Of a stretch of DNA of 53,395 nt, positions 36-53,395 are shown in pieces (within the stretch, counting starts at the first letter, position 1; every line of letters starts with the position of its first letter). This DNA comes from a virus (lineage: Duplodnaviria; Caudoviricetes). The DNA lies in IMG/VR virus record IMGVR_UViG_3300034050_000199, positions 1 through 53,395 of that record. One strand, 5' to 3'. Made by a program: the position numbers and the translations under genes. The notes beneath the pieces were generated by a model that was not told the DNA's origin, ran no database searches, and saw only the letters and a program-made list of their open reading frames with translations.

Positions 36-191
36 TTATTCTTTATAGTTATAGTATGTTGCAAAACTTTCGTAATCATTATTACAGCCTTCGCATAAAA
101 GATCTTCTGTAAAACCTTCTGTTATTATATAATAACATCCATTACAAAGTGTTGCACCTATTCCGTTATTAAATTTATGTATTGGCGTCAT
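36..191 (-). CDS. 51-aa small protein with two CxxC pairs (possible Zn ribbon)
   Basis: Manual translation MTPIHKFNNGIGATLCNGC...LLCEGCNN...; start overlaps the stop of 188..412; below ORF-track cutoff. Confidence 0.65.
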   Translation of the reverse strand: MTPIHKFNNGIGATLCNGCYYIITEGFTEDLLCEGCNNDYESFATYYNYKE

Positions 192-412
192 AATCCTTTT
201 TCCTTTTTAAACATTTTTAATAGTTCTTTATAATCTAAATATTTTAATTTTGAATGATTACAATTTTTAATTATCCACTCCGTAAATTCTGTCATATAAT
301 TATAAATCCATTCATCAAATTCTAAATAGTAATCTTCATAAGGTCCAGAAAATGCAGGTCTTTCTTTTATACATTCTTTTACATATTCATTATATTGTTC
401 TGTTAACGTCAT
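188..412 (-). CDS. hypothetical early protein
   Basis: 74-aa ORF in tightly packed minus-strand operon; C-terminal ELLKMFKKEKGL module. Confidence 0.7.
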   Translation of the reverse strand: MTLTEQYNEYVKECIKERPAFSGPYEDYYLEFDEWIYNYMTEFTEWIIKNCNHSKLKYLDYKELLKMFKKEKGL

Positions 413-518: not shown

Positions 519-794
519 TTATTTTTTTTTAAATTGTTCAAATATTTCTTTTGAATTTAATCCAGCTAATTTACCATTAAAAAAATTATCAATAGTATAT
601 TTAATTGAATCAATAACTTCTTCCTCACTATACTTATTATTGTCTTGTTCTTGTTGCCATTTAGTACCAAATTCAATAGCGTTTTCAATTAATTCTCTAT
701 TATTTATATGCAAATTAGCACAAGGAATATCATATACTTCATTATGTATGTCAGCATAATTTGATTTAGCTTCTTCAAGTGTTTCTTGTTTCAT
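519..794 (-). CDS. hypothetical early protein (MKQETLEEA...KWQQEQ...YSEEEV type)
   Basis: 91-aa ORF with ATGA overlap to the upstream gene; shares YSEE module with 3099..3341. Confidence 0.75.
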   Translation of the reverse strand: MKQETLEEAKSNYADIHNEVYDIPCANLHINNRELIENAIEFGTKWQQEQDNNKYSEEEVIDSIKYTIDNFFNGKLAGLNSKEIFEQFKKK

Positions 795-1411
795 AATTGT
801 TTATTTAATAATTCTTTTTCTTTTTTAAGTTCATTACTCATATTGCGATGTATTGTTCTTGTTGAACATTTAAAATGCTCTGCAATATTCTTTATTGTTA
901 TCTTCTGCGATATATCATGCATGTAAAGCATTGCTTCATATATATCAGATTCAGTTACTTTTTTACTTTTACCAATTATATGTCCTACAATTGATAGTTT
1001 TTCAGAAGTTGTTAAACCTGTATTGTCTTTAAATATAATCTTACGTAATTTGTTTGGCGGTGGTTTTTCTAAATCAACCATGCTAACATCATATAATATA
1101 TTTTCTAAAGCATGCTCTGATATATTAAAAGTAACAAATCCATTAGATCTTGTACATACATATCTTGCAAGCGTTTCAAACTGGTCCTGACTCATTGAAT
1201 GATTAAGATACCATAATACATACAAATGCCATTTCAATGATTTATATGTGTTGATTTGAGCCCGTGAGTTAAATAATGTATAGCATTCGCGAGTTCCATT
1301 TTCAAAGTAATAACCCCAATCATACTCTGCTGAACACTTATCATTAACAGGATCTTGTCTATATAATATTCTTCGTTTATTTAAGTATTCTATATTTCTT
1401 TCATCATGCAT
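791..1411 (-). CDS. DNA-binding protein with C-terminal HTH; candidate replication initiator or regulator
   Basis: C-terminal ITIKNIAEHFKCSTRTIHRNM is a typical HTH; inverted-repeat site immediately upstream. Confidence 0.7.
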   Translation of the reverse strand: MHDERNIEYLNKRRILYRQDPVNDKCSAEYDWGYYFENGTRECYTLFNSRAQINTYKSLKWHLYVLWYLNHSMSQDQFETLARYVCTRSNGFVTFNISEHALENILYDVSMVDLEKPPPNKLRKIIFKDNTGLTTSEKLSIVGHIIGKSKKVTESDIYEAMLYMHDISQKITIKNIAEHFKCSTRTIHRNMSNELKKEKELLNKQL

Positions 1412-1751: not shown

Positions 1752-1756
1752 ATATA

Positions 1757-1969
1757 TTATCGTTTATTGTTCGTATTTGTTTTGTATTCAATTATAAATC
1801 CTATAGCAACAATTATATTCATTCCAAATGAAGCTATTATCTCGTGTATGTCTTCATATATATTTACAGTTAAATGTACATGACCTACTACCCAGAATGG
1901 TATAGACAAGTTACTGGCTATCCATGTAATAGTAAATTTTAAAAAGTTAATAAGGTTTCGTGTTAACAT
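1757..1969 (-). CDS. small membrane protein (about 2 TM segments)
   Basis: Two hydrophobic stretches in a 70-aa ORF. Confidence 0.7.
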   Translation of the reverse strand: MLTRNLINFLKFTITWIASNLSIPFWVVGHVHLTVNIYEDIHEIIASFGMNIIVAIGFIIEYKTNTNNKR

Positions 1970-3796: not shown

Positions 3797-3840
3797 TAGT
3801 TACATTATTATTATCAATTAGTATTCGTGTTTGTTTTGTA
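3797..3840 (-). promoter_or_regulatory. early promoter-like motif copy
   Basis: Minus strand TACA-N6-AYACGA-N8-TGATAATA-N4-TGTAAC upstream of the 3783 start. Confidence 0.8.
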
Positions 3841-5222: not shown

Positions 5223-5260
5223 TATTATTATTATCAATTATTGTCCGTGTTTAGTTTGTA
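5223..5260 (-). promoter_or_regulatory. early promoter-like motif copy
   Basis: Plus strand TATTATCA-N8-CCGTGT-N6-TGTA. Confidence 0.75.
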
Positions 5261-6032: not shown

Positions 6033-6076
6033 TAGTTACATTTATATTATCAATTGTTATTCGTGTTTGTTTTGTA
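6033..6076 (-). promoter_or_regulatory. early promoter-like motif copy
   Basis: Full consensus with exact spacing. Confidence 0.8.
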
Positions 6077-6768: not shown

Positions 6769-6812
6769 TAGTTACATTTATATTATCAATATAGTGTCGT
6801 GTTCTGATTGTA
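6769..6812 (-). promoter_or_regulatory. early promoter-like motif copy
   Basis: Full consensus; overlaps the 3' end of 6786..7130. Confidence 0.8.
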
Positions 6813-8033: not shown

Positions 8034-8077
8034 TAGTTACATTATTATTATCATTTAGTAATCGTGTTGGCTTTGTA
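8034..8077 (-). promoter_or_regulatory. early promoter-like motif copy
   Basis: Full consensus with exact spacing. Confidence 0.8.
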
Positions 8078-8740: not shown

Positions 8741-8784
8741 TAGTTACATTATTATTATCAACACCCAATCGTATTCGTCTTGTA
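8741..8784 (-). promoter_or_regulatory. early promoter-like motif copy
   Basis: Full consensus with exact spacing. Confidence 0.8.
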
Positions 8785-9040: not shown

Positions 9041-9083
9041 TGTTACACATATATTATCAACTTGGTCTCGTGTTCGTTCTGTA
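9041..9083 (-). promoter_or_regulatory. early promoter-like motif copy
   Basis: Consensus with exact spacing, abutting TGCTATACAC. Confidence 0.8.
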
Positions 9084-9256: not shown

Positions 9257-9288
9257 TATTATCAAAAAAGAACCGTGTTCACTCTGTG
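9257..9288 (-). promoter_or_regulatory. early promoter-like motif copy with no ORF downstream
   Basis: Plus strand TATTATCA-N8-CCGTGT-N6-TGTG, same spacing; points into non-coding 9100-9255. Confidence 0.65.
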
Positions 9289-9631: not shown

Positions 9632-9671
9632 TATATTTTTATTATCAATTGTTCGTCGTATTCGTTCTGTG
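9632..9671 (-). promoter_or_regulatory. early promoter-like motif copy
   Basis: TATTATCA-N8-TCGTAT-N6-TGTG. Confidence 0.7.
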
Positions 9672-10065: not shown

Positions 10066-10109
10066 TAGTTACATTATTATTATCATTTAAACGTCGTATT
10101 CGTTCTGTA
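10066..10109 (-). promoter_or_regulatory. early promoter-like motif copy
   Basis: Full consensus. Confidence 0.8.
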
Positions 10110-10304: not shown

Positions 10305-10348
10305 TGGTTACACTTATATTATCAATTAGTCGTCGTATTCGTTTTGTA
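10305..10348 (-). promoter_or_regulatory. early promoter-like motif copy
   Basis: Consensus with exact spacing. Confidence 0.8.
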
Positions 10349-10374: not shown

Positions 10375-10417
10375 ACTTACACTTATATTATCAATGATCA
10401 CTCGTGTCCAGTCTGTA
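10375..10417 (-). promoter_or_regulatory. early promoter-like motif copy (most upstream of the arm)
   Basis: Consensus with exact spacing, abutting TGCTATACGC. Confidence 0.75.
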
Positions 10418-10427
10418 TGCTATACGC

Positions 10428-10545: not shown

Positions 10546-10767
10546 GTATATCTATAGTAATATCTCAATCATTCCCAGAAGTTCAAAGCAAAAGGCAAAA
10601 CTTTTTCATCAAAACTTATAAAAGACCGGGGGGTGGTGTAAATCAGATTCATTTTCCTTTTCAACTTTAAGTATTGAAATAGGTATATAACCCCTTACTT
10701 CTATATATCTAATAACATATTTAACTACCTTACTTATATATATCTGATAACATTTTTTATTCCGCAC

Positions 10768-10818
10768 AAAGTGTGACATTAGCTGGTATATTATATAGTA
10801 GTAGGCTATTGTCGCATT
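10768..10818. repeat. inverted-repeat site copy 3 (AAAGTGTGACATTAG-N23-CTATTGTCGCATT)
   Basis: Same arms as 1424 and 9142. Confidence 0.85.
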
Positions 10819-18795: not shown

Positions 18796-18807
18796 AATAA
18801 TAAAAAC

Positions 18808-18851
<44 letters not shown>

Positions 18852-18853
18852 CT

Positions 18854-36600: not shown

Positions 36601-39600
36601 ATGGCAGAAGTAAAAAATAGTTTCCTAAAGTCTAAGATGAATCAAGACTTAGACGATAGACTTATCCCTAATGGGGAATATAGATATGCAAATAATATTT
36701 CAGTTGGAAAATCTGAAACAGATGATATTGGAGCATTAAAAAACGTTCTAGGTAATGAATTACTTTTAAATACACAGTCAGAATATGACGAAGGCATGGA
36801 GTGTATTGGTATATTCATGGATAACCAGAATAACCGTATGTTTCAATTTTTAACGAATTATACGGATCCAAATCCAAATCAAATAACATTTCCAGAAGAT
36901 GTACCACTTCCAAATGGTATAACTGAATGGAAAATGAAAATAGCAATGTACACTTTTGAAGGCAACAGTGCTCCTTATGTAACATTGGTTGACGGGTTAT
37001 TTTTAAATCTTGCAAAAAATAAACAATTTAAAATTACGGGTGTAAATTTAGTTGAAGGTTTATTATTCTGGACTGATAATAGAAATCAACCAAGAAAAAT
37101 AAATGTTGCTAATGCTTTATCTAATATAAATTATTATACTACAGAAGAACAAATATCTGTAGCTAAATATGCTCCGATAGATCCTATAACATTATATAAA
37201 AAAGTAGTTACTACAGCCGATGGCGATTCATCAGGTAATACATTAGAGGTTGTTGATGCGGCTGGCATCGTGCCGGGTATGACATTGGTAACGGAAGATA
37301 TAAGTGGATCAGATTTTTGTACGGTTGTTGATGTTACTGGAAATATTGTAACTTTTTATGAAAATTATCCAGGAACTATTACAGAAGGTACAGAGTTAAC
37401 ATTTTTAATTTCTACAATGTCTGACAAATCCCAATTGCCGTCATGGCCTGGTGACCCTGCTTTTTTAGAAGACAAGTATGTTAGATTTAGTTATCGTTTT
37501 AAATATGATGATAACGAGTATTCATTAATGGCTCCTTTTACACAAATAGCATATATACCTAAGCAGAAAGGTTATTTTATTAATGGAAACGAAACGGACG
37601 CTTATAGAAGTACTGTAATAAATTGGTTTGAAAATAATATTAATAATATAGAATTAATTGTACCGTTCCCTGATAAAATTGGGAATCTCGCTAACAGTTA
37701 TAAAATAATTGAAATTGATATTTTATACAAAGAATCTGATTCAACGGCTATTAAAGTATTTGAAACAGTACCTTTGTCTTTTATAAATACTACAGCTAAT
37801 GCAAATAATAATTATTATATACAACAATATCAATCACAAAAACCATATAAAACATTATCTGAAGATCAAACAGTAAGAGTATATGATAAAGTGCCAGTAA
37901 GAGCCAGGGCTCAAGAATCTGCGGGCAATAGAATAATTTATGGTAATTACTATGATAAATATACTTCGTTAGCTTCTATAAATTACAATATTGCGGTACA
38001 ACCTAAATCAACATCACGTACTAACTTTATAGAATATCCAAATCATACATTAAAAAAGAATAGAAATTATCAAGTAGGCTTTGTAATAGCTGATAAGTTT
38101 GGTAGACAATCACCTGTGATTTTATCTTCCGGTGATTTACCAGGTTTGGATCTTGGACTTGCAGGGTATGCTAAAGGATCAACAGTTTATTCAAGTTACG
38201 AAAATTCAATTTTATTTGATGACGTTCGTACTTGGTTTGGTGATGCTTTAATATTATATTTGAATAGCCCTATAAATCAGCAAAAAGATATACCTACTGG
38301 TCAACCTGGTTTATACGCAATACCTACATCTAATTTTGGGTTTGCAATAACTGATTTTGCTGTAGTTGGGCCAAAAGAATATGCATTTACTATGGATCTA
38401 GATGTATTGGCTTCTCAGTTTATTCCTGAAGTAGGTAATATATTAAGAGGAAAATACGTTGATTATGTAAAGGTATTAGAATCATATCCAGTGTATCAAA
38501 TACCTGGCGATAATACATCTCCTATAGTTAGCGTTACAATTAAAACTTCTGATGACATAAACGATATATATAAATATGTTGATCAAGGATTTGATGTACC
38601 AGATATTAAGTTTTCTTATAAATACAACCCTATTGGATGGTATTCTTATAAAGTTGTTGTTAAACAGCAAGAACAGGATTACTACAATGTGTATTTGCCC
38701 GGCATGTTAAATGGTTATCCTAAGGGTCAAACTTCTGGATCTCAAGTCGTATATGATACAGCAGGTTTGGCATCACTGGAAAACGGTATAAATACTACGC
38801 AGTTTCCGGTAAGTGAGACAGGTAACACATCTCACATCGTATTAATTAATGATAATATTAATAAAGTACCAAGAGATTTATCTGAAGTTGGGCCTGACCA
38901 AAAACAATATAGAAGTAGTGTGCAATTATATGGTAGAGTTGAAAATACTAAAGATACTATAACTATAATAGGTGATGATCCTACATATTCCGCTAAAGTA
39001 ATTATAATAAAATATACAATTGTACCTCCTGGTCCAGGAGAAAAAAACAATGATTGGGCTTTAATAAACCCAGGCGACGGTATTCAATGCGTTGAAGCAA
39101 ATACACCTGTTAATAATACAACTCCAGGGTTAGGAGGCACAATACCAAACCCATATAGATGGTTAGGTGATACTGTTGTTGTTTCTAATGAGGTTGTTGG
39201 TAATGCAGGAACTATAACAATATCGTCTCCAAACTGGGTTCTAGAAGCCAGTGGCACTAACCCTGATTATAAAACATTTATAATTACAAGAGCAGAAAAT
39301 AAACAGTATTTTCCAACTAGAAAAGCTGATACAGTAATATCTATAGCTACCGCTGATGAATTTAATTTTTTGGATAGTTCAGAAGATAATTTAAGTGGTA
39401 CGGCAGGATTAAACTTTTATCAATTGCAAACAAAACCATTAATAGGTAGGGTTTCTACTGTTAATCAGATTGGTGTAACAGCAAAAGATATGATACCTTT
39501 TTTAAGTGTATATGAAACAAGAGCAGAACAAAGCTTATTAGAATTGTTTTGGGAAACAGCAACTACTGGTTTAATATCAGATTTGAATACAGATGTTTTA

Positions 39601-41927: not shown

Positions 41928-43457
41928 ATGGCAGCAATATTAGAATTAAAATATTTTAACTCTTTTTGGTTAAAGAAACTCGATACAATAGTAGAGGTAC
42001 AAAATACGGGAGCAGAAGTAGAGGGTAATGTCGCTAATTCTGCTACTGTAGTTATAACAACACCAAACAATGAAATTAGGGTTGGACAAACTGTTAGTTG
42101 GGTAGGGGTTCCGGTCCCTAATCCATCTGTGTATAAAGTAATAAGCTCTACTCAATTTGTATTAAGTGAACCTGTAACTATATTGGATGGTGTAGGATTG
42201 AATTTTGGTCCATTAACAGATTTTACTTATGTACCTAATGCTTATGCACCAACACCTACATCAGATTGGTATGTTGAGGAAGCTAGAATTAGAGGTGGAT
42301 ATAATAATACAAATGTGGATCTTGGTGTTAAAGCTTATATTGTTGAGGACAACATTAGACAGCAACACAGACAAAATTCATTAATATACTCTGGTGTATT
42401 CAATTCAAGAACGGGTGTTAATAAAACAAACGAGTTTTCAGTTGGTGAAGATATAACAAGAAGTTTAGATCCATCAAATGGTTCTATTCAAAAATTATAT
42501 TCTGAAGACACAAACTTAATTGTATTCCAAGAATTTAAAGTTAGTCAAGCATTAATTGATAAAGACGCTATCTATTCAGCAGAAGGACAGCCAATGACAA
42601 CATCTGGAGCGCAAGTAATCGGTCAGGTTCAAGCTTATGCTGGTAACTATGGTATTGGTACTAATCCTGAAAGTTTTGCTGTCTATGGCTTCCGTAAGTA
42701 CTTTGTTGATAGAAACAGAAACGTAGTATTAAGATTGTCACAAGATGGTATATCTGAAATATCAGAATATGGAATGGGTGATTTCTTTAGAGATAATCTT
42801 TCTGAAATTGGTAATGACGGATTTATATTAGGTATGTGGGACATGCATAATAAAGAATACGTTTTATCTATGCAACCAATTAATGGAACTTACAAAACAT
42901 TGACATTCGACGAAGACGTTGCTGGTTGGACAAGTTTCTTTGATTTTAAACCAAACTGGGGCGGAAGTTTAAGAAATAACTTTTACACATTTAAAAATGG
43001 AGAAATATGGAAGCACTATTCGCCAGGTAATAGCGGATGGGGTAGATTCTATGGAGTTACTTATGATTCATCAGTTGAAGTTATATTTAATCCTGATGTA
43101 TCTTTAGTTAAGACTTTTAAAACAATAAATTATGAAGGAAGTACTGGTTGGGAAACTTTATCGTTTTACACTGACTCTGATATTTCAGTTCCTATATCTA
43201 AAGCATCTTATACAACGACTCTTGCTGATTTAGAATTACAATTATTTACTAATTCATTCAAGAGAAAAGAAGATAAATACTTTGCAAATCTTATTAACAT
43301 TACGCCAGCCTCAAATAGTGAAGTGGTATGGGGTAACTCAATGACGGGTGTAAAAGGAACAACAGCAACGGTTAGAATGAGATATTCAAATACGGATTTA
43401 CAGAAGAGTGGAACACTGTTTGCGGTATCTTCTGACTACATAGATTCATCTTACTAA
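41928..43457 (+). CDS. tail stabilisation / muzzle protein, C-terminal-like part
   Basis: LIYSG.FNSRTGVN..NEF, GSIQKL, YGI..NPESFA.YG...YFVD, GWTSF, K.FKTINYEG. Confidence 0.8.
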   Translation: MAAILELKYFNSFWLKKLDTIVEVQNTGAEVEGNVANSATVVITTPNNEIRVGQTVSWVGVPVPNPSVYKVISSTQFVLSEPVTILDGVGLNFGPLTDFTYVPNAYAPTPTSDWYVEEARIRGGYNNTNVDLGVKAYIVEDNIRQQHRQNSLIYSGVFNSRTGVNKTNEFSVGEDITRSLDPSNGSIQKLYSEDTNLIVFQEFKVSQALIDKDAIYSAEGQPMTTSGAQVIGQVQAYAGNYGIGTNPESFAVYGFRKYFVDRNRNVVLRLSQDGISEISEYGMGDFFRDNLSEIGNDGFILGMWDMHNKEYVLSMQPINGTYKTLTFDEDVAGWTSFFDFKPNWGGSLRNNFYTFKNGEIWKHYSPGNSGWGRFYGVTYDSSVEVIFNPDVSLVKTFKTINYEGSTGWETLSFYTDSDISVPISKASYTTTLADLELQLFTNSFKRKEDKYFANLINITPASNSEVVWGNSMTGVKGTTATVRMRYSNTDLQKSGTLFAVSSDYIDSSY

Positions 43458-43468: not shown

Positions 43469-43942
43469 ATGAATGACAAATTAGAAACAAAAACTGAGAA
43501 TAGAATAATTAGCCAAGACTATATTGATAAGGTAGAACATTTAGAGCAAACGTTGCTAGCAATGAACGATCCTAATGTAGCTAAAGGTAATACAGATTTG
43601 TTTCCATTAAAGCATTCATTTTCACACGGTATATACATACGGGAGATGTTTATGGAGAAAGATAGCGTTGTTATCGGTAAACTTCATAAGTTCTCCCATA
43701 CGTGGTTTTTATTGAAAGGTCAATTACTAGTATCAACAGATGAAGGATCAAATCAATACATAGCTCCTTGTTATGTTAATGCTCCTGCTGGTACAAAAAG
43801 AGTTATATATGCGGAAGAGGATTCTATATTTATAAATGTCCACCCAAACCCGGATAATATAACAGATACAGATGAACTTGAGGATATTTTAGCATGCACA
43901 TCGTATAAAGAATATAATGAATATAAACTATTAAAAGAATAA
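43469..43942 (+). CDS. cupin-like protein
   Basis: HSFS.GIYIRE......VIGKLHK..H..FLL.G...AP....PAGTKR. Confidence 0.7.
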   Translation: MNDKLETKTENRIISQDYIDKVEHLEQTLLAMNDPNVAKGNTDLFPLKHSFSHGIYIREMFMEKDSVVIGKLHKFSHTWFLLKGQLLVSTDEGSNQYIAPCYVNAPAGTKRVIYAEEDSIFINVHPNPDNITDTDELEDILACTSYKEYNEYKLLKE

Positions 43943-43945
43943 TAT

Positions 43946-44749
43946 ATGAGTATGGTAGTAGTTGGAGTAATAGGTGCCGCAGGCACAATAGCTTCAGGAT
44001 TAATAGGTGCTGGTGCTGCTAAGAAAAGAGAAAGAGCAGCTGCACAAGATAAAGCTAGATTAGGTGCTGAGCTTAACCAATTAGAAAATAGTAGACAAGC
44101 AATTATAAATCCTTACTCTACAACAAAAGACATGAGTAGCTTGGCTAAAGATTTATCTGGTACATTAAGTAATCCTTATGCTAATTTAGGTGTTGCTACA
44201 AATGCAGCTAAATTTGAGGCAGAGCAGATTGATGTTTCATTAGCAAATACATTGGACACGTTAAAAGATACTGGAGCAGGAGCAGGTGGTGCAACAGCAT
44301 TAGCTCAAGCGGCATTAAAAGCTAAACAAGGTATTTCTTCTAATATTGAATCTCAAGAGGCTAACAATGAAAAAATGAAAGCACAAGGAGAAGCAAATTT
44401 ACAAGAGGCTAAAATGCAAGAGAAACAAAGAATACAAGGTGTTCAAATTGATGAAGCTCGTCGCGTGCAATCAGCAGAGGCGGCTGGTAAGTCATTTATG
44501 TTTGGCGCACAAGAAAATAGAGAACAACAAAAAATAGACAGAGTTGCGGGACAATTAGCCGGAGCCGGAGCACAACAAATGCAGGCACAAGCGGATAGAA
44601 CAGGCGCAATTACCGGTATGATTGGTGGTTTATCATCAATAGCAGGAAGTATGGCTGGAAGTGCTGGATCTGGAGCAACAAGTACTCCCGGGTCAGGAGC
44701 AGGCTATGCATCTCAGTTTGGAGCAATGGCAAATCAATTTAAAAAATAA
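43946..44749 (+). CDS. internal virion / ejection (pilot-like) protein
   Basis: Gly/Ala-rich hydrophobic ends, Gln-rich coiled coil, GAGAGGATALAQAA. Confidence 0.7.
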   Translation: MSMVVVGVIGAAGTIASGLIGAGAAKKRERAAAQDKARLGAELNQLENSRQAIINPYSTTKDMSSLAKDLSGTLSNPYANLGVATNAAKFEAEQIDVSLANTLDTLKDTGAGAGGATALAQAALKAKQGISSNIESQEANNEKMKAQGEANLQEAKMQEKQRIQGVQIDEARRVQSAEAAGKSFMFGAQENREQQKIDRVAGQLAGAGAQQMQAQADRTGAITGMIGGLSSIAGSMAGSAGSGATSTPGSGAGYASQFGAMANQFKK

Positions 44750-44757
44750 AAATATAT

Positions 44758-46164
44758 ATGGGAGCATATTCAAATCCACAAATACCTATTGACACACAAT
44801 CAGGACAATACTATAGGGATCTTACAAATACAATAGCAAGCAATACTGTTAATACTATTAACACATGGGCCGCAAAAGCCGCTGAGAATAAAAAAAATAA
44901 TGAAGCTTTAAAAGTAAAAGTCGGAGAAGAAGAAAGTGCGTTATATAGAAATCTAAGCAGCACACAGCAACAAAATCCTACAGTTAATTTTGAAGAATTA
45001 TATAGACCTCAAATAAAAAGATACGCTGAATTAAGAACAAGCATATTAAACGGAACAAGTACTGATCCTTCTAGAGATAGAATGGAAGCAGATAAAATAT
45101 TTGCAAGTGTTGGTAATATTAAAAATTCATTAGTGGATTTATCAAGTGAAGGTTTTGATGAAAAATATTCTAAAATGGGTGGTGCAGGTGGTTATGCCGT
45201 AAAAGAAAATGATCCAAATGTTATGAAGTCAATGCTAATATTCTCAGGTAAATTACCCGGTAAAAAAGTAGCAAGATTTGAAGATAATGATCCTTCTAAA
45301 GTAGTTTGGGATATATACGACGGTGAAACTAAAATACAATCTTTATCAGCTGAACAATTAAAGAAAGCGGCTAGTGGCCAAGGTTTATTAAAAGTAATAC
45401 CAAATGCTGCAGATTCTATAGACAATGCAAAAGCCGCTGTACCCGATGTATTTGATGTGAAAGATGGATTGCCAACTGGAACAATTAAACAAGAATATTT
45501 AGGAGAGGTATACGAAAAGGAATTACCTGGACAAGAAACATCGATAGTTAGTGGTTATCAAAAAAATACCAAAAAGTATGTAGCTACAGCAAAAATTAAT
45601 AAAGAAGCTATTATGGCAAACCAAAACTTTTTAAATGTTTTAAATGCTAAAGCTGACGGTTTCATTAATGGCTCTGCGGATAATTCTCAAGCAATATTAT
45701 TCCACAATACATATATTGCTAAGTCAGATCAAGATTTGCTTGAATGGGATAAACCTATGACTACAGAACAACAAAATAAATTCAAATACGATTATAGAAT
45801 GTTTGTTATAGATGGATTACCGGAAGAACAAACTGTTCCAGGATCTGGAATTATTGAAAAAGAAGAAATTACAAAACAAGTTATATCTAAACCAACAGGT
45901 GGTAAAGGAGGAAGTAATAAACCAAATAAACCATCTGCGGCCGCTGAAAAACAAGCAAAATTAGATGCCGAAGTTGCTGATTTAATAAAAACTAAAAAAG
46001 GAGGCCTTACTAGACAAGGGTATACATTAAGTATTATAGATGGCAGATGGGGCCTTTATGATAAAGATGGGTTACCAAAACCTGGAACAGAAAATATTAC
46101 AAGTCCTACAGAATTAGCTACATTTATTGGTGGATCACGACCAAGTAAAACAAAATTAAAATAA
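44758..46164 (+). CDS. putative internal virion protein
   Basis: 468 aa between the pilot-like gene and the giant gene; call is positional. Confidence 0.6.
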   Translation: MGAYSNPQIPIDTQSGQYYRDLTNTIASNTVNTINTWAAKAAENKKNNEALKVKVGEEESALYRNLSSTQQQNPTVNFEELYRPQIKRYAELRTSILNGTSTDPSRDRMEADKIFASVGNIKNSLVDLSSEGFDEKYSKMGGAGGYAVKENDPNVMKSMLIFSGKLPGKKVARFEDNDPSKVVWDIYDGETKIQSLSAEQLKKAASGQGLLKVIPNAADSIDNAKAAVPDVFDVKDGLPTGTIKQEYLGEVYEKELPGQETSIVSGYQKNTKKYVATAKINKEAIMANQNFLNVLNAKADGFINGSADNSQAILFHNTYIAKSDQDLLEWDKPMTTEQQNKFKYDYRMFVIDGLPEEQTVPGSGIIEKEEITKQVISKPTGGKGGSNKPNKPSAAAEKQAKLDAEVADLIKTKKGGLTRQGYTLSIIDGRWGLYDKDGLPKPGTENITSPTELATFIGGSRPSKTKLK

Positions 46165-46182: not shown

Positions 46183-49100
46183 ATGGCAAAGTATTTTAAT
46201 AATAACGGAGAAGAATATACTATAGAAGAAATCGTAGCAGCTGCTGAAGAAAACAATAAAAGTGTTGAAGACATTATAGCAGATAATGGTTTAACTATGG
46301 ATGGTGAGAAGCCGGGAAAGTCTCAGGGTGTAACTGCAAAGAAACCGGTAGTTGCACCAAAAAAACGAAAATCGGTTTTACCATCGGGAAATACTTCTTC
46401 GGGTTGGAATACTAAAGAGGCACCAAAATATGGTATTGAAGCTATTACGGAAACTTTTCAAATAAAAAAGAAAGCTCAAGAAAAAAAAGCAGCAACTAAA
46501 AAAGCAGAAGTTAAGAAAAGCAAAGCTGTTGTTAATAATTTTGTAGATGCACAGCCTGATATAGCTAATCCTTTTGATACAACAATAAAAGCAGATGTAA
46601 CTGATCCATTTAATACGGGTGTAAAATTAGATGTAAGTAATATACAAAGCGATTATTTAGGTAGAGAAGATAAAAAAGCAATGCAATTTATTAATTCTAG
46701 TGTTAATTTTGACGAAGCTAACAGTAAGTTAAATGATGAATTAAATGATTCTCAGACTATTGATTATGTAAGAGAAGGAGCAAAAGAATATTATAATGAA
46801 TTAATTGCAAATCCACTTACTGAAGTTGCTGGGTTATTTGGTGCAAATATTGATATAAAAATGGCCCCATATAAACCATTAGAGAATGAGAAGAAACAAG
46901 CTAGAGAAGAATTAGCTAAAAAAGGCATAAAGATTACTAATGAAAAAATAGAAGAAAGAGCTAAATCTATATATATAGATAATCAAATATTAGATCAAAA
47001 AGGTAAAGCTGCTGAAGAATATTTTGACACATTAGATGATGACAAATTAAAAGACCAATTAAAAATTAAAGCGATTGCTGATAAATTAAATGCATCGGAC
47101 AAAGCTAGGCAATATACAATGCTATCTAAAGTTTATGATTCTCAAATAAAAAGCTTTGGTAGTTATGCAAATAATATAAGAAAAAAATACAATGACGGTA
47201 GTATAACGCCTGAAGAGTTAGCAGAATATAAAGTTAAAGCAAAAGAAGCTAAGGAAGCTTATGGATATTTAGAAAATATTTATAAAGACTTTCCTAAAGT
47301 AGAGAAGCAATTAAAAACAGACACAGAAAAACTAGACTTTTATAAATTAAATTATGATGATGTAGAAGGTAATCTAAAAAGATTATATGCAAGTGGTTTA
47401 AAAGTATTAGGTGGAACGTTAAAAATTGGTGGTGAAAGCGCTAAGTTTTTAGAAGAAAGCATAACAGGTAATATAAGCCCAATTGGTACAGGAACAAACT
47501 TAAGTACTATTGGAGGTATGATGTTGGAAGATGCCGAGACCGAAACACAGGATTTAAAATCTATAACTTTTGAAAGTGTTAGTAATTTTAATGATTTTGG
47601 TAAATATATGGGTAATCTGTTCTCAGATCAAATACCTATATATGCTTCAATGTATTTTGGTGGTTCCGCAGGAGCAGGTGCAGTTTCGCTTAGTTCGGGT
47701 GGACAAAAGATACAAGAAATGGAAAACGAAGTTGGAGCTAACTATAGTTTAGGTACAAAGCTACTTACAGGTTATGCTTATGCTACAGCTGAATTCATTC
47801 CAGAAAAAATAGGTACACTTAGAATGTTTGAGAACCTAAAAGGTACTATGGCTTCTGTTGGTAAAGAATCAAGAGAATTATTTAAAGACGGACTATTTAA
47901 GTCTGCTATTGGAATTGGAGGTAAAACGGCAATGGAATCCACCATAGAAGGTGGTACTGAGGGTTTGACTGAATTTTTAGATATGGCTATTGATGAGCAT
48001 TTATTAGGTAAAGAATTTACAGCTCAAACAAAAGTAAAAAGGATTAAAGAGGCTGTTGCCGGTGGAGTATTTATGGCTGGTCCTATGCAAACTATTGGAG
48101 GTGCTAATACTTTAATTGCAAAAGAATTAAAAAACTATGCAACCGAAAACGAAATACAAGAAAGTAAAAAGATTATAGATAGAATCGATTTTTTACAGAA
48201 TGAGTTAGCAACTAATGCTAGTTTATCAAGTAGTGAATCAAATCAAATCAAACAAGAGATAAATAATTTATCTGATACTTCTATTGGTATAATTGAAAAT
48301 TCTCAAGATAGAGTTTACAATATGACTACAGAAGATATGGTTGCTGTAGTTAATATAAATAAAGAACAAGCTAACTTAAAAAATAAGTATACAGAATTAA
48401 TTGACTCTAATTTTTCAAATGAAATTAAAGTTGAAAAAGCAAACGAATTAAATAAGGAATTTAAACAACTTGAAAAAGAAAGACAGTTTTTATTAACGGA
48501 TAAATATGCTACAATAAATAAAGTAGTTAATAACGCTTTGGTTATTAATGACAGCATTGAAAATATAACTAAAATAGCTAATTCTATTGGACAAGTTGAA
48601 TTTGATAATAAAATAGGTGATCAATCTGGTATTGCTGTATTTAATTCACCAAAAGAATTAGGTGAAGCGTATAAAGTATGGTTAGTTAAAGATAATAAAA
48701 ACGAAGATGGTACGGAAAAGAAAACACCTGCTCAAATTGATTTAGAAGTAAAAGAAGCAATTAACTCAGATGGTTTTAAATTACCAAATGGACAAATTGT
48801 AATCAATAAAGCTGTTGCTGCTAATACAGGGGCTATTAACGTTGCTAACCATGAATTCTTACATAAAATACTACAATCAACATTTGAAGATAAAAAACAA
48901 GCTAGTTTATTAGTTAATCAATTTTTAAATGTATTGAGCAATAAAGAAAGAGCTATTGTTCAAAAAAGGATTGATGATAATTATAGATATTCAATAGACG
49001 CAAACGGCAATAAAGTTGAGAATGATTTTGAAGATTATGCTGAAGAATATTTTAATTCATTTATTGATGCTTTAAAATACGAAGAGATTAATAACAAAGA

Positions 49101-52100
49101 TAACTTTAAACAATTATTAATTAGAGTTGCTTATCCTATATTAAAGTATTTTAAAAAATTAGGTTTTAATAAAATAGAATTTGAATCAGGTGATGATGTT
49201 TATCAATTTTTAAAGTCCTACCAAAAAAATATATCAAAAGGTAGAATTAGTAAAAGAGCAACTAAATTACTTAGCCAAGAAAAAGTAGGTGGTAGAGTAA
49301 TGAAATCAAAATCTATTCAAGAAAGAATGGATAAACTTGATGATCAATTAGGTTCAGGAGAAATAGACATTGACATGTACGAGACCCGTATGGTTGCCCT
49401 TGAAAAAGAGGAATTTGAAGAATCTAAAAAAGCATACGAAGAAGAAAAGAAAACGGTTAAAAAAGAACCAACTAAAAAAGAACCAACAGAAATAAGTGAA
49501 TCAGCTGCAAAAGCAAAAGCTAAATTAGATAGTATTGGTAATGATCCTAAAGGGTATAATCCAAACAATCCAGCTATTTACGATGAGCTTGACAAAATGG
49601 TTAAAGCTAAATCAAGAAACTATAGAACTTCAAACGGGACCGTTATTGATCTTACAAGTAAAGAGAAGGGTGGATTAGATGGATTCAATATGGAAGAAAT
49701 GGTAAGTTATGTTAGAACTTCCATGATCCCTTATATTGCTAAATTTGATCCTACTAAAAATAATAGTTTGTATGGCTATATCAATGCCCAGTATATTAAT
49801 AGAATGAAGGCTGCTCTGAAAAGTGGAGAAGTTGCTGATGTTGTATTTACTGAAGATGTTAGTGAAATGACTAAACTTTCTAATGAAGAAGTTGAGGTAA
49901 AAACACCTTCATTACCAGAAAGGAAAAGATACCAGAATATTTTAGAGTCTGGTGTATTTTCACCAGCTGTTATTGAAGATATACAAGCAAAGATATTACC
50001 AATAATAAGAACTTTAAAATCTAAAATAGATGAGAAGGTTTCATTAAATAAAACAGTACCTCCTATTATTGCTGAAATACGTAACGAGATTGGTAAACAA
50101 GCTGATATTGACGTTAAAAGAGCTATGGGCGGTAAAGAAGATGGCCAACTTAGAAAGTTCTTATTAACAAATAAAAAACCTATTCTTGAAAACATGACTA
50201 CTACATGGTTAATGGGTAAAGATAATGGTAAAACAGTTTCAGGTGGTATGCCTTTTGCTGTTCAAAAAAGAATTAATAATCAATGGACAAGTTATCCAGA
50301 TTGGATTGGAAGAAAAGTTGATAGAGAATCTGTTAGCACTGATTTAGCTGGTAGAACATCTGGTGCTGAATTAGTCAGAAGATTACCTAATGTAGCTAAT
50401 AATATTTCTGATGAAGTATTTTTAGAGTCTATTATAGATCCAGTTACAGGATTACCATTAAGAGGTAGAAAAGAATCATTAGCAAAAGCAATAAGCGAGG
50501 AAATTACTTTTGATATAATATCAGATGATTTAGCAAATGAAGGTATATTATCTCAAGCATTACAGAAAAATCAAGAAATACTGGGTGCAGAAATTGGTAA
50601 AGTAATTGTACAAGAGTTTGATAGATTAGCTGAAAGGGGTAATGTTAAATTTTCTTTATCTTCGCAAAAGAATATAAACTTAGATAAAGCAATGCAATAT
50701 CTAATTAAAAATGGCGGAGATGTAATACAAATAGAGGAAGATTTAAAAGAAAGATCTAAAGACGAAAATACTAATGAATTTAGAAAACTTTATAAATATC
50801 TTATAAGCAATAAGGTTACTAAAGATGACATAATTGATATTATTAAAAAATATACAGAAAGTTTATCTAAGATAGCTTATAATTACCATGAAAAGTATTT
50901 AGTAAATTTAATAAACTCTACATCTAAAACAGGGCCAAGAGCTAAATCTTATGGTGGAAATAATAACAATGTTCCTGATATAGTTATTGGAGCGGCTTTT
51001 AGAATAAAAGATAAAGACAAGTTAAATAAATATAACGGTTCATTAGCATTTGTGGAAGCTAAACTAAATGCTTATGCAAGATTGACTTCTGGTACTTTAA
51101 ATGCTTTAAATACTAAGCATAATAATAAAGAATGGGCAAAATCTATAAATGATCTATATTCTAAATTTAATGATTCTACATTAGGAAAACAATTAAACAA
51201 GTATACAGAAAGTAATAAGACTGATGCAGGTGCTCTTGTTATTAAAGATGGTGAATTAAATAATGTAAATAATCTTTTATTAAATAATAAACTAGTAGGT
51301 AAGATTGATTTAGGTATTGATGCAATATTAGATATTAATAATTCTAAAACATTTAAAAACGATCTGTTAATTATAAAAACAACAGTAACAGATTATTTTG
51401 GCGAAGATTTTTTTAATACATACTTTGGCAATGAAGATGTTAGTAAGAATATAATATCTGCACAAATAGAGTTAAAGGTTGAACAAAATAAATTTATAAG
51501 GCCTAGAGTTTACTTTTATATTAATAGAAATATTGCTAACAATATTAATAAATTAAATATAGAAAAAAGCAATTTAACGGAAATACTGCCAAAAGCGGAT
51601 GCTGTAATTAAGAATAAAACTTTATTAAAAGAGAATAAATTAATTGAAAACTCTGTTAAAGTAGTTAATTTTAGTAAATCAATATCAACCGCTACTGATT
51701 ATATTAATAAAAACAATTTAAGAAGATTAGACACTGAAACTTCTTATGAATTACTTGATCAATTAGCAAAAGAAATTGAAAATTATTGGGGTGTTTTACC
51801 TAATGATGTTATTCTTGGAATGAACAGAGCTGTAGATTATGCTGTGGACGTAATAGAAGATCGCGAAGGATCTGGCTTCTTAATGGAAGCATTGAATCAA
51901 GGTTTGAATATTGAGACTGTTAAAAATGCTGAAAAGCAATTAAACGAATTTATTGATAAAAACAAACCAAAAAGCACAATGTATAGCAAATCCTTGGATT
52001 TTGAATTCAATGATATACTAGAAAGAAATACGGGTGTTGCAGCATTTACAAAAGTATCTGATGTAGTGGCTAAAAGAACAGGTATTAAGAAAAACACATT

Positions 52101-53395
52101 ATCATTCTTTGTACCACCTTCAGCTGATGACTTTAGAGGTTTAACAACTTATATGTTTGCTGGTAAAGGTAAACAAGGAGAACAAGATCAAGAATTCTTT
52201 GATAAAAACTTAACTGTTCCGTATGTAAAAGGTATTAATACTTTAGATTCTGTACGTCAGTCTATTAGAAAAGAATATAAGATGTTGCTTAATAATTTCC
52301 CTGATATTAAAAAGAAACTTGAAAAGTTAACACCAGATAAAGGTTTTACTTATGATCAAGCTGTTAGGGTTTATCTTTGGTCGTCAACTGGTAAGGAAGT
52401 TCCTGGTTTATCAAGAACTGATAAGAATAAATTATTGTACTTTGTAAAACAAAATCCTGATTTACTGGCTTTTGCAAACGCATTGTCAATAACGGGTAGA
52501 CAAGATGGCGGCTGGATTGATCCTTCAACAACTTGGGATAGTGAAACTATTATATCTGATCTTCACAATATTACTGAAGGCGCTGGTAGAAAGAAATATC
52601 TAGAGGAGTTTATAGAAAACGCTGATGCAATATTTACAAAAGAAAACCTAAACAAGATACAATCTATATATGGTACAAATACAAGAGAAGCATTAGAAGA
52701 TTCTTTATATAGAATGAAGAATGGTAAGAATAGACCAGAAGGTACTGATAGAGTAACAAATACTTGGATGAACTGGATTAATGGTTCTACTGCTGCAATT
52801 ATGTTCTTTAATACTAGATCAGCATTGTTACAGACTATATCAGCAATTAACTTCATAAACTGGAATGATAATAATCCATATATGGCAGGTAAAGCTTTTC
52901 TTAATCAGAAACAATATTGGTCTGACTTCGCGATGATTATTAATTCCGACAAATTAAAAGAAAGAAGATCTGGTTTAAAAGCCGATGTTACTCAAGCTGA
53001 GATTGCTAATGCTGCAAACAGTGCTAAAAACAAATTTAACGGTGTTATATCTTATTTACAAAAAATAGGTTTTACACCTACACAAGCAGCGGATAGTTTT
53101 TCTATCGCAGTTAGCGGTGCTACATTCTATAGAAATAGAGTTAACACATATTTGAAAGCAGGTGATACTGTACAAGAAGCTGAAGAAAAAGCATTCAATG
53201 ATTTTTCAATCATAACGGATCAATCAATGCAATCCGCCGATCCAATGTACGTTTCAAAACAACAAACAACTGCATTAGGACGCATTATATTGGCTTTTGG
53301 TAATACTCCAATGCAATATAATAGATTGATCAAAAAAGCTACGTTAGACTTAGCTAATAGACGTGGAGATTGGAAAACAAATGTTTCTAAAATTG
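46183..53395 (+). CDS. giant (>2400 aa, 3'-truncated) multidomain internal virion protein: zincin HExxH, sigma-region-2-like, PD-(D/E)xK-like
   Basis: ATG 46183 (MAKYFNNNGEEY...), frame open to the window end; HEFLH at 48850, KFDPTKNNSLYGYI at 49741, PD...EAK at 50974-51063. Confidence 0.85.
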   Translation, partial: MAKYFNNNGEEYTIEEIVAAAEENNKSVEDIIADNGLTMDGEKPGKSQGVTAKKPVVAPKKRKSVLPSGNTSSGWNTKEAPKYGIEAITETFQIKKKAQEKKAATKKAEVKKSKAVVNNFVDAQPDIANPFDTTIKADVTDPFNTGVKLDVSNIQSDYLGREDKKAMQFINSSVNFDEANSKLNDELNDSQTIDYVREGAKEYYNELIANPLTEVAGLFGANIDIKMAPYKPLENEKKQAREELAKKGIKITNEKIEERAKSIYIDNQILDQKGKAAEEYFDTLDDDKLKDQLKIKAIADKLNASDKARQYTMLSKVYDSQIKSFGSYANNIRKKYNDGSITPEELAEYKVKAKEAKEAYGYLENIYKDFPKVEKQLKTDTEKLDFYKLNYDDVEGNLKRLYASGLKVLGGTLKIGGESAKFLEESITGNISPIGTGTNLSTIGGMMLEDAETETQDLKSITFESVSNFNDFGKYMGNLFSDQIPIYASMYFGGSAGAGAVSLSSGGQKIQEMENEVGANYSLGTKLLTGYAYATAEFIPEKIGTLRMFENLKGTMASVGKESRELFKDGLFKSAIGIGGKTAMESTIEGGTEGLTEFLDMAIDEHLLGKEFTAQTKVKRIKEAVAGGVFMAGPMQTIGGANTLIAKELKNYATENEIQESKKIIDRIDFLQNELATNASLSSSESNQIKQEINNLSDTSIGIIENSQDRVYNMTTEDMVAVVNINKEQANLKNKYTELIDSNFSNEIKVEKANELNKEFKQLEKERQFLLTDKYATINKVVNNALVINDSIENITKIANSIGQVEFDNKIGDQSGIAVFNSPKELGEAYKVWLVKDNKNEDGTEKKTPAQIDLEVKEAINSDGFKLPNGQIVINKAVAANTGAINVANHEFLHKILQSTFEDKKQASLLVNQFLNVLSNKERAIVQKRIDDNYRYSIDANGNKVENDFEDYAEEYFNSFIDALKYEEINNKDNFKQLLIRVAYPILKYFKKLGFNKIEFESGDDVYQFLKSYQKNISKGRISKRATKLLSQEKVGGRVMKSKSIQERMDKLDDQLGSGEIDIDMYETRMVALEKEEFEESKKAYEEEKKTVKKEPTKKEPTEISESAAKAKAKLDSIGNDPKGYNPNNPAIYDELDKMVKAKSRNYRTSNGTVIDLTSKEKGGLDGFNMEEMVSYVRTSMIPYIAKFDPTKNNSLYGYINAQYINRMKAALKSGEVADVVFTEDVSEMTKLSNEEVEVKTPSLPERKRYQNILESGVFSPAVIEDIQAKILPIIRTLKSKIDEKVSLNKTVPPIIAEIRNEIGKQADIDVKRAMGGKEDGQLRKFLLTNKKPILENMTTTWLMGKDNGKTVSGGMPFAVQKRINNQWTSYPDWIGRKVDRESVSTDLAGRTSGAELVRRLPNVANNISDEVFLESIIDPVTGLPLRGRKESLAKAISEEITFDIISDDLANEGILSQALQKNQEILGAEIGKVIVQEFDRLAERGNVKFSLSSQKNINLDKAMQYLIKNGGDVIQIEEDLKERSKDENTNEFRKLYKYLISNKVTKDDIIDIIKKYTESLSKIAYNYHEKYLVNLINSTSKTGPRAKSYGGNNNNVPDIVIGAAFRIKDKDKLNKYNGSLAFVEAKLNAYARLTSGTLNALNTKHNNKEWAKSINDLYSKFNDSTLGKQLNKYTESNKTDAGALVIKDGELNNVNNLLLNNKLVGKIDLGIDAILDINNSKTFKNDLLIIKTTVTDYFGEDFFNTYFGNEDVSKNIISAQIELKVEQNKFIRPRVYFYINRNIANNINKLNIEKSNLTEILPKADAVIKNKTLLKENKLIENSVKVVNFSKSISTATDYINKNNLRRLDTETSYELLDQLAKEIENYWGVLPNDVILGMNRAVDYAVDVIEDREGSGFLMEALNQGLNIETVKNAEKQLNEFIDKNKPKSTMYSKSLDFEFNDILERNTGVAAFTKVSDVVAKRTGIKKNTLSFFVPPSADDFRGLTTYMFAGKGKQGEQDQEFFDKNLTVPYVKGINTLDSVRQSIRKEYKMLLNNFPDIKKKLEKLTPDKGFTYDQAVRVYLWSSTGKEVPGLSRTDKNKLLYFVKQNPDLLAFANALSITGRQDGGWIDPSTTWDSETIISDLHNITEGAGRKKYLEEFIENADAIFTKENLNKIQSIYGTNTREALEDSLYRMKNGKNRPEGTDRVTNTWMNWINGSTAAIMFFNTRSALLQTISAINFINWNDNNPYMAGKAFLNQKQYWSDFAMIINSDKLKERRSGLKADVTQAEIANAANSAKNKFNGVISYLQKIGFTPTQAADSFSIAVSGATFYRNRVNTYLKAGDTVQEAEEKAFNDFSIITDQSMQSADPMYVSKQQTTALGRIILAFGNTPMQYNRLIKKATLDLANRRGDWKTNVSKI
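46314..46379 (+). other. -1 programmed ribosomal frameshift signal (slippery G GGA AAG + H-type pseudoknot)
   Basis: In-frame heptamer 46314-46320; 6-nt spacer; stem 1 46327-46337/46348-46358 (11 bp); stem 2 AAACCG 46342-46347/CGGTTT 46373-46378. Confidence 0.75.

Follow-up and report, generated by a model that had tools for sequence, protein, structure and literature searches.

Phages start transcription in two known ways, either from promoters that the host holoenzyme reads or with a polymerase carried in the virion, as in N4 and the crAss-like phages. We asked how the first transcript is made in the phage IMGVR_UViG_3300034050_000199 (Duplodnaviria; Caudoviricetes), whose whole linear record of 53,395 bases, estimated to be 84% complete, is the window analyzed here. 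An open reading frame (ORF) at its right end encodes a giant protein, presumed to be virion cargo, that contains a domain resembling region 2 of sigma factors, and the leftward early arm of the genome carries a repeated promoter-like motif. An initial annotation had proposed that the phage injects this sigma-like module and so redirects the host core RNA polymerase (RNAP) to its own early promoters. We found that the domain is predicted to fold like gp55, the minimal sigma factor of phage T4, and to dock on the RNAP β′ subunit. The best explanation of the data as a whole, to which we give a probability of roughly 0.4, is that a virion-delivered gp55-like specificity module starts early transcription and that a free-standing sigma factor then serves the later genes.

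The sigma-like domain begins the first conserved block of the giant protein, a module of about 390 amino acids (aa). When 26 full-length proteins were aligned, two blocks were well conserved, with identities to the window of 0.41-0.74 per 30-residue bin over aa 1081-1500 and 0.51-0.76 over aa 1951-2404, compared with 0.14-0.31 per bin over most other stretches; the protein as a whole has at least three conserved blocks with variable stretches between them. The peptide quoted in the initial annotation is the frame-1 translation of 49585-49820 and lies inside the giant ORF (Table 1). The likeness to sigma region 2 that had been seen there by eye is borderline at the sequence level. A profile of the domain alone, compared with 177,635 PDB sequences, returned eight rows, four of which were sigma factors in register (SigE N-terminal domain, E 0.029; WhiG, E 0.2 and 0.43; RpoE, E 2.1), and in this HMMER comparison the FDP...L.GYIN...R stretch aligned with the corresponding stretch of the sigma factors. 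With the alignment of the whole module (54 sequences) the same set gave 14 rows, comprising five sigma factors (E 0.11-1.1, profile positions ~5-115), six amyloid-precursor helices on a different part and three others. The best conserved positions among the 54 sequences are an aromatic residue at 1188 (53/54), L1196 (52/54), an aromatic residue at 1199 (54/54), I, L or V at 1200 (54/54) and R1207 (46/54). Sigma70_r2 (PF04542) is the Pfam family that most members match, yet only 3 of 54 do so, at a best E of 0.025 and below the cut-off; the match in the giant frame of the relative G001 (E 0.024) scored 10.8 bits, and the embedded domain does not reach the gathering score of 24 bits. By ESM Atlas features, 21 of the 30 named clusters nearest to a 121-aa segment fall in the Sigma70_r2 set (score 0.96, viral clusters of ~119 aa), a result that we treat as a lead.

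Predicted structure points to the same family. We built an AlphaFold2 (AF2) model of aa 1105-1500 from the 54-sequence module alignment, with a predicted local distance difference test (pLDDT) score of 80.5 and a predicted template modeling (pTM) score of 0.58. The model consists of a helical domain (residues 1-120), a low-confidence linker (121-142) and a mixed second domain (143-381), and its structural matches to sigma factors cover residues ~4-125 only. In a Foldseek search of the PDB, 49 of the 50 listed rows were sigma or sigma-holoenzyme entries (E 0.06-0.7), and among the top 50 rows from BFVD, 16 of the 31 that carry a name are called sigma factors. Alignment of the Foldseek candidates with VIA-align gave sigma entries in 50 of 50 rows, led by T4 gp55 (7d7c_F: Z 8.1, root-mean-square deviation [rmsd] 5.3, 106 residues aligned) and including sigma70 (6ca0_F: Z 7.2, rmsd 2.7, 84 aligned) and sigma28 (Z 7.1, rmsd 2.5, 74 aligned). 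A VIA scan of 48,161 chains, which is independent of Foldseek, again placed gp55 first (7d7d_F: Z 8.2, rmsd 2.9, 93 of 137 residues aligned), as the sole row with Z of at least 8 and 1.7 above the next row. Twenty of the top 30 rows of that scan were sigma entries by title, or 23 when counting CnrH, AlgU and BldN, which we take to be extracytoplasmic function sigma factors. Model residues 25-111 (window 49567-49827) superpose on residues 376-446 of Escherichia coli sigma70 (1sig_A: Z 5.7, rmsd 2.3, 71 aligned), so that the by-eye likeness has its counterpart in a predicted region-2 fold. It is not the scores that carry weight here but how uniform the matches are and that they agree with the register of the sequences. 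We conclude with good confidence from the model that the fold is that of sigma region 2. The domain probably belongs to the sigma-70 region-2 superfamily, and this membership is structural and provisional because the Pfam threshold was not reached.

The domain is also predicted to bind RNAP. We co-folded it, using a domain-only alignment, with residues 1-450 of β′ from Flavobacterium johnsoniae (RPOC_FLAJ1) as a stand-in for the host. The score was 0.66 (three runs, 0.65, 0.69 and 0.66), and the best of three controls scored 0.00; the runs share at least 66% of their contacts, with partner pLDDT of at least 86. The mark used is reached by 58 of 80 solved complexes and by 2 of 110 mismatched pairs, a calibration that is rough here since a custom alignment was used. 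In the confident part of the interface β′ 288-319 touch module residues 67-79, flanked by contacts of residues 24-29 and 112-115; from the analogous E. coli numbering we presume that this β′ stretch is the clamp helices. The helix predicted to contact them starts with two conserved acidic residues (consensus GFxxEE). The co-fold, which had been suggested in the initial annotation, supports binding in silico, and we judge it somewhat better than an even bet that the domain binds core RNAP.

Other results weigh against this reading, beginning with the identity of the domain. Scans of Pfam and PHROG gave no family for the giant protein or for the segment, the sole row being ADDT at E 0.059, below the cut-off, and the 118-aa domain matched in NCBIfam only dipicolinate synthase B, at E 0.029, which we regard as chance. 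For the 54 domain sequences NCBIfam returned noise, in which the commonest match was a DNA polymerase model (7 members) and 7 of the 25 listed families were sigma, all far below the cut-off. No Foldseek row reached E 1e-3 or lower, and the Foldseek E-values for PDB and BFVD were all at least 0.06. No sigma region 3 or 4 was recognized, and the only recognized sigma-like part is the region-2 homology domain. This part is the less conserved half of the module, with 10-36% identity to the window in distant clades. The β′ used for the co-fold came from a stand-in host, and the pass may only restate the likeness because complexes of sigma region 2 with β′ have been solved.

These shortfalls bear on an alternative in which the sigma likeness is a common helical arrangement, or a relic, without a role in transcription, and the module serves assembly, packaging or ejection. 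All of the sequence scores are below threshold, and the ESM segment shares 146-151 of 256 features with its neighbors, fewer than the 170 typical of same-family matches. A Z near 8 is also not rare for helical models, as the model of the unrelated C-terminal module of the same protein reached Z 9.1 on generic four-helix bundles. The matches of that control were, however, a mixed bag, unlike the uniform sigma rows of the module model with 20 of the top 30 among 48,161 chains, and for the module independent methods name one family in one register. The co-fold placed the region 2.2-like helix on the presumed clamp helices of β′ when all three controls scored 0.00, and the aromatic and basic positions typical of sigma factors are kept in 46-54 of the 54 sequences. 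We consider a chance likeness or relic unlikely.

The early arm provides what such a factor might read. The initial annotation had counted 12 rigidly spaced promoter-like sites; using the pattern TATTATCA-N9-CGTRTY-N4-YTGTR with at most two mismatches, we found 13 matches from 1755 to 10417, all in one orientation, vs 0.04 expected. In the sense of the minus-strand genes the sites read ATACAR-N3-RAAYACGA-N8-TTGATAATA(W)4-5-TGTAAC, giving a motif of ~40 bp, and 12 of the 13 are followed, 4-30 nt past the box, by the ATG of a minus-strand ORF that is 35 aa or longer. Conserved upstream boxes lie at about -40 and -28, counted from an assumed start near TGTAAC. The consensus of the Bacteroidota primary sigma factor is TTTG...TAnnTTTG, and the motif contains no such sequence, in agreement with what had been noted from the sites by eye. 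Promoters of the host type were considered and set aside, with TTTG-N17-21-TAnnTTTG present at only two sites in the window, both inside + strand genes and on the wrong strand. The motif was found in 6 of 9 relatives searched, including all four records that are at least 96% complete (G001-G004, with 14, 16, 8 and 13 copies, always in one orientation). Two distant relatives, whose modules are 33-36% identical, carry slight variants (five copies of TATTATAC and seven copies of TATTATCC). A single match with two mismatches in G005 was not counted, and the records G006 and G007 (44% and 67% complete) had no match.

Several other elements accompany the arm. A transcript from the motif site at 9257 would hold a long, near-perfect hairpin (window 9090-9288, minus strand; 161 nt folded, -46.8 kcal/mol, z -3.2), one arm of which is the 16-mer AAAGTGYGACATTAG that recurs at 1425 and 10768; it is possibly a small RNA or a regulatory hairpin, with no match in Rfam. 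The divergence region at 10418-10783 contains a CT/CA-rich low-complexity run, and shortly before the + strand genes come two tandem 25-mers (10694-10718 and 10729-10753; two matches vs 0.01 expected). ACGTRATWWTA, a candidate second motif for late promoters, was judged too weak, with three matches vs 0.52 expected and 2 of 100 shuffles also reaching three; these fall at 20372, 34361 and 41913 on the + strand, a short way upstream of the GroEL gene, the 34429 ORF and the second muzzle ORF, respectively. Five public runs hold early-arm shares of 0.05-0.22, all as contigs that reveal no transcript starts, and we draw no conclusion from them.

The phage also encodes a conventional sigma factor, which is a serious rival as reader of the motif and another point against the embedded domain. 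This free-standing gene sits at the far end of the early arm, downstream of the last motif site and behind a 206-aa ORF with a C-terminal helix-turn-helix (HTH; HTH_11 E 3.7e-4, below the cut-off). It is named by JGI 'RNA polymerase sigma factor (sigma-70 family)', and in relatives it encodes 252-255 aa with a Sigma70_r2 score of 24-25 bits, at or near the cut-off, and a weak region-4 match. It was detected by Pfam in three of four relatives and by profile in five of five further relatives (E 1e-93 to 1e-166). The initial annotation had pointed to co-occurrence of domain and motif across related genomes, and the two do co-occur, but the conventional sigma gene travels with both, so co-occurrence cannot tell which sigma reads the motif and presence or absence could not be used to decide. 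The embedded domain is not a recent copy of this gene, an origin ruled out by hhalign, where module and free sigma aligned over 69 columns in the region-2 register at E 0.03 and a probability of 1.7%, and the domain alone aligned over only 19 columns; this distance too counts against a sigma function. The position of the free sigma gene, beyond the last motif site, means that its product cannot supply the very first transcription of the arm, and since the gene is itself behind a motif promoter, the arm must be fired by something present at entry, either the host holoenzyme or a delivered factor.

The two sigma-like proteins bring in a further possibility, that the embedded domain binds host RNAP without reading promoters, as a decoy that keeps the host primary sigma off the core and so shuts off the host, or as a tether at the entering DNA end, and that the motif is read first by the host holoenzyme and then, or instead, by the free 252-aa sigma. 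The fold and co-fold evidence fit this equally well. The counterparts of regions 2.3-2.4 are, however, the conserved residues of the domain, and a pure decoy would not need them; nor can the free sigma start the arm, or does the motif resemble the host consensus. The free sigma has regions 2 and 4 in the relatives tested and is better conserved than the embedded domain. The upstream boxes are what a sigma equipped with region 4, or else a separate DNA-binding domain, could read, and the motif is nearly unchanged across clades in which the embedded domain diverges strongly, all of which is less favorable to a gp55-like reader. In phage phi14:2, moreover, the host polymerase reads phage promoters resembling -35 and -10 elements (10.1101/2020.03.07.982082). 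We hold the decoy or tether somewhat unlikely, and that the domain itself reads the early motif is a tentative proposal, with odds somewhat short of even.

We also looked for a polymerase carried in the virion. The initial annotation had seen no RNAP catalytic motif in the visible part of the giant protein, and D.D.D is indeed absent from its 2404 aa. Of the 198 family proteins with 2400 aa or more, four contain DFDxD and 59 contain D.D.D, at scattered and non-conserved places. The full-length profile compared with PDB sequences returned 12 rows, none of them a polymerase. A search with PF00940 (RNA_pol) matched none of five records and was uninformative, the control genomes being equally silent. 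DLAGR at aa ~1386 together with AFGN was considered by eye as a mark of a T7- or N4-like polymerase (T/DxxGR) and found no support in models or searches. The second domain of the module, the most conserved part of the giant protein (~240 aa), is basic, with a family median pI of 9.27; it was assigned no family by ESM features and gave only weak VIA rows (DpnI, Z 5.7; RepB, Z 4.7). A virion RNAP encoded beyond the window had been named as one of the cases that would undo the proposal. Full-length relatives measure 2826 aa (L003) and 2845 aa (L009), so that ~420 C-terminal residues are absent from the window, and these fall in a module that, when modeled in full from L003 (852 aa, 57 sequences, pLDDT 77), is entirely alpha-helical, with generic helix bundles as its only matches and no specific one. 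The stretch of G001 that is absent from the window encodes an HTH protein, a sigma factor, ERF, a PDDEXK nuclease, GIY-YIG, a primase-helicase, a thymidylate synthase (ThyA), MazG, DUF1064 and a ribonucleotide reductase, and none of the 10 ORFs tested there is an RNAP. An RNAP hidden in the giant protein or beyond the window was thus not found, the modeled parts of the protein being aa 1105-1500 and the C-terminal module.

We considered whether the giant protein could be delivered at entry. The large terminase of the window matches 87 phage records (68 Flavobacterium, 15 Cellulophaga, 2 Tenacibaculum, 1 Maribacter and 1 other), with 63% identity to the best, MW202828.1, and at most 44% to the rest; because these relatives are mostly from Flavobacterium and Cellulophaga phages, the host is likely a member of the Flavobacteriia. 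The + strand block encodes two tail fibers, GroEL, the large terminase, a portal, a major-capsid-type protein and a crAss-type muzzle, and the giant ORF closes it, preceded by three smaller ORFs and, before them, the muzzle gene. Behind its muzzle, PhicrAss001 encodes the cargo proteins gp45 and gp46 and the giant RNAP-associated gp47, gp49 and gp50, all five of which were detected in virions by mass spectrometry (PMC10172136). It is from synteny with these crassvirus cargo genes, as the sole basis, that we presume the giant ORF product to be a virion cargo or ejection protein. The three ORFs ahead of it, compared by position with PhicrAss001 gp45 and gp46, matched no family in Pfam and PHROG scans.

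The same synteny leaves room for a protein that is not delivered to the cytoplasm and whose sigma-like domain has a late intracellular role, prior to packaging or in its course, such as restraining the polymerase or the free sigma. Virion location is deduced from synteny only, the module was found in no cultured phage (tblastn of 50,697 phage records gave no match), and hydropathy gave no convincing membrane segment in the protein of the window, with one candidate, at aa 720-741, in P0003; each of these also tells against delivery at entry. The gene nevertheless closes the structural operon directly after muzzle and cargo-like genes, the giant proteins in the same place in PhicrAss001 are virion-borne (PMC10172136), and giant phage proteins bearing HExxH have been described as injected, 'polyvalent' proteins that jump-start transcription (PMC5512222). 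A purely late role is in our view improbable.

The module belongs to a large family and occurs in it as part of giant proteins. A word-seeded search with aa 1120-1500 (6279 candidates of 1322-4207 aa) yielded 997 proteins at E of 1e-3 or lower after clustering at 90%, and a HMMER search of 1.84 billion representatives found 357 clusters (50% clustering) that match the module, 286 of them at 1e-10 or lower. In the best 150 of the 357 it lies at about aa 900-1450 of proteins of 2000-3400 aa, or in evident fragments, and no clearly stand-alone module was seen among these representatives; 62 shorter matches, considered as stand-alone copies, start or end inside the module, mostly on short contigs, and are likely gene fragments. 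A second significant copy was found in 0 of 130 long proteins, and several sigma-like copies per protein were thereby rejected. Close relatives of the giant protein measure ~2680-3200 aa. All 198 family proteins of at least 2400 aa contain HExxH, which in the window stands ~215 residues ahead of the sigma-like module with a charged low-complexity linker between them, and it is conceivable that the protein processes itself into modules.

We suggest that the giant protein, made of several modules, may travel in the virion and enter the host together with the DNA. Within its mid-protein module of ~390 aa, the ~120 N-terminal residues would form a minimal T4-gp55-like sigma region-2 domain, which on entry would bind the β′ clamp helices of the host core RNAP, as sigma region 2 does, and direct the host enzyme to the 13-copy early promoters of the leftward arm, where it would probably read the AT-rich, -10-like TGATAATA box. 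Contacts to the polymerase or to the upstream boxes may come from the second domain, which is basic and highly conserved. The free-standing sigma from the end of the early arm would then take over middle and late transcription, in a two-sigma relay without a phage polymerase. What we infer is that the protein is packaged and ejected, that it binds RNAP in vivo and reads promoters, and that the two sigmas form a relay. A delivered specificity module is favored because the motif is unlike the Bacteroidota consensus, no polymerase was found in the parts tested and the domain in the presumed cargo protein is predicted to fold and dock like region 2. Of the injected factor first proposed for this phage, the fold and the docking thus held up in silico; its role as the reader of the early promoters is contested by the free sigma, and its place in the virion comes from gene order. 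More broadly, and more tentatively than for the single phage, a large family of uncultured ~61-kb podophages may lack an RNAP and instead inject a minimal sigma of the gp55 kind, which would fire an early promoter of ~40 bp repeated about a dozen times, with a conventional second sigma following.

The closest known counterpart is T4 gp55, a minimal sigma with only a region-2 homology domain, in which one helix supplies the acidic residues that bind the β′ clamp helices and the DNA element recognized is -10-like (PMC7892883). Of all chains compared, gp55 scored highest against the embedded domain (7d7c/7d7d, Z 8.2), at ~17% sequence identity, and the predicted contact helix of the module also opens with conserved acidic residues, as does the equivalent helix that gp55 uses (PMC7892883). 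The gp55 family further has a helix-loop-helix extension, a C-terminal motif that binds the sliding clamp and the partners gp33 and gp45 (PMC7892883). Unlike the module, gp55 is a free protein of the 185-aa class, made in mid-infection, that works with gp33 and the sliding clamp gp45, whereas the domain described here is embedded midway in a protein of ~2800 aa, precedes a conserved but unrelated domain of 240 aa and would be active from the very start of infection.

In size and position, and in the crAss-type muzzle upstream, the giant ORF resembles the virion RNAP genes of crAss-like phages. The phi14:2 gp66, PhicrAss001 gp47/49/50 and N4-like gp50 proteins are giant virion RNAPs that are ejected along with the DNA for early transcription and whose genes close the structural block (10.1101/2020.03.07.982082; PMC10172136), and N4-like polymerases are fused to HExxH peptidase domains (PMC5512222). 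In contrast to these, the giant protein has no conserved DFDxD or D.D.D and no polymerase match in the PDB, and its C-terminal module and sigma-like domain are predicted to be helical, unlike the double-psi beta-barrels of phi14:2 gp66 (PDB 6VR4). If the delivered item is a specificity factor for the host enzyme and not an enzyme, early transcription should therefore be rifampicin-sensitive. The early transcripts of phi14:2 are described as having no common upstream motif (10.1101/2020.03.07.982082), and the phage of the window has a very strong one.

Polyvalent proteins are very large multi-domain proteins, often with a zincin-like HExxH peptidase; they have been proposed to enter along with the phage or element DNA and so to jump-start transcription or replication (Iyer et al. 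2017, PMC5512222). The giant protein is like them in its size, its multiple blocks and its HExxH, and its injection is presumed here; unlike them, it matches no Pfam 'LPD' family, and a sigma domain is missing from the modules listed in that paper, which does not use the word 'sigma'. T4 Alt, a head-packed ADP-ribosyltransferase, is delivered with the virion and biases host RNAP to phage early promoters (PMC5512222), but it is a polymerase-modifying enzyme and not a stoichiometric specificity subunit as proposed for the module. Free-standing phage sigmas, including the 252-aa sigma of this family, are likewise sigma-70-family proteins that take host core RNAP to phage promoters; they are separate genes expressed after infection begins, and the embedded domain is distant from them and has no recognizable region 4. 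In the literature searched, which left most subscription journals aside, no virion or ejection protein was reported to contain a sigma domain.

Comparison with MW202828.1, the nearest GenBank phage, bears on how these elements are inherited. It lacks the module, the motif (0 matches at up to three mismatches) and a homologue of the free sigma. Its giant protein (3859 aa) has two HExxH motifs and neither conserved module, and its early arm has 12 copies of a different palindrome, GTGTCGTTAACGACAC. Judging from these genomes, giant cargo genes and early control elements appear to be swapped as sets between related phages. The records G004 and G008 also end at or in the free sigma gene, possibly owing to a variable spot nearby that breaks assemblies. 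In the window, the ~760 nt from the 206-aa HTH gene to the sigma start (34-793) hold small minus-strand ORFs at 519..794 and 188..412, which are absent from G001, where the HTH and sigma genes overlap.

The remaining observations concern the + strand genes. The two muzzle ORFs encode 1757 and 509 aa, with the Pfam muzzle models matching the second only and the PHROG match of the first limited to its first 200 residues. The phage encodes a GroEL-type chaperonin (20416-21969, + strand; phrog_5725, E 1.5e-133). A (TAAA)n run at 18800-18855 fills the gap from the 1046-aa tail fiber gene to the next ORF. Scans of the window for tRNAs and Rfam families found nothing.

Table 1. Coordinates of features in the 53,395-base window; aa numbers refer to the giant protein unless a length is given.
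Feature	Position	Strand	Basis or remark
Giant ORF, 2404 aa visible	46183..53394	+	3′ open at window end; presumed virion cargo/ejection protein
HExxH motif, aa 890-894, possible zincin-like metallopeptidase site	48850..48864	+	Motif match, no Pfam hit
Sigma region-2-like (gp55-like) domain, aa 1105-1222	49495..49848	+	AF2 model residues 1-120, structure searches, profile, ESM features
Helix predicted to contact RNAP β′, aa 1171-1183, counterpart of sigma region 2.2	49693..49731	+	Co-fold contacts
Conserved [FYW][DN][PG]...L.[GA][YFW][ILV]N.....R stretch, aa 1188-1213	49744..49821	+	Counterpart of end of region 2.2 through 2.3-2.4
Low-confidence linker, aa 1225-1246	49855..49920	+	pLDDT <50 at model residues 121-142
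Second domain of module, aa 1247-1485	49921..50637	+	pLDDT mostly 80-94
C-terminal conserved module, start, aa ~1936 to window end	51988..53394	+	Cut by window end
crAss-type muzzle gene, two ORFs	36601-41874 and 41928-43457	+	phrog_14478; PF25731 E 4.9e-9 and PF25729 E 4.9e-12 in second ORF
Three ORFs (157, 267, 468 aa) between muzzle and giant genes	43469..46164	+	Place of crassvirus cargo genes
Free-standing sigma-70-family gene, first 11 codons	1..33	-	Cut by window's left edge; 11/11 residues identical to L095:1402-2160
206-aa ORF (p206), C-terminal HTH, directly upstream of sigma gene in relatives	794..1411	-	98% identical to G001 ORF
Motif site, 1 mismatch, last before p206 and sigma genes	1755..1786	-	Pattern scan
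Motif site	3809..3840	-	Pattern scan
Motif site	5229..5260	-	Pattern scan
Motif site	6045..6076	-	Pattern scan
Motif site	6781..6812	-	Pattern scan
Motif site	8046..8077	-	Pattern scan
Motif site	8753..8784	-	Pattern scan
Motif site	9052..9083	-	Pattern scan
Motif site, no ORF within 235 nt downstream	9257..9288	-	Pattern scan
Motif site	9640..9671	-	Pattern scan
Motif site	10078..10109	-	Pattern scan
Motif site	10317..10348	-	Pattern scan
Motif site, first of arm, at divergence point	10386..10417	-	Pattern scan

If the proposal is true, the module would be the first virion-delivered promoter-specificity subunit and a third solution to the problem of the first transcript. A protein that is presumably ejected and has a sigma-like domain would connect sigma appropriation with cargo systems of the crassvirus type. 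Should the domain do no more than bind polymerase, it would still be a new addition to the modules of injected polyvalent proteins, and would also show that a giant cargo gene in the crAss-like position need not be a polymerase gene. The ~390-aa module and the ~40-bp motif form a defined pair that can be tested in an uncultured phage family that is large and abundant in the environment.

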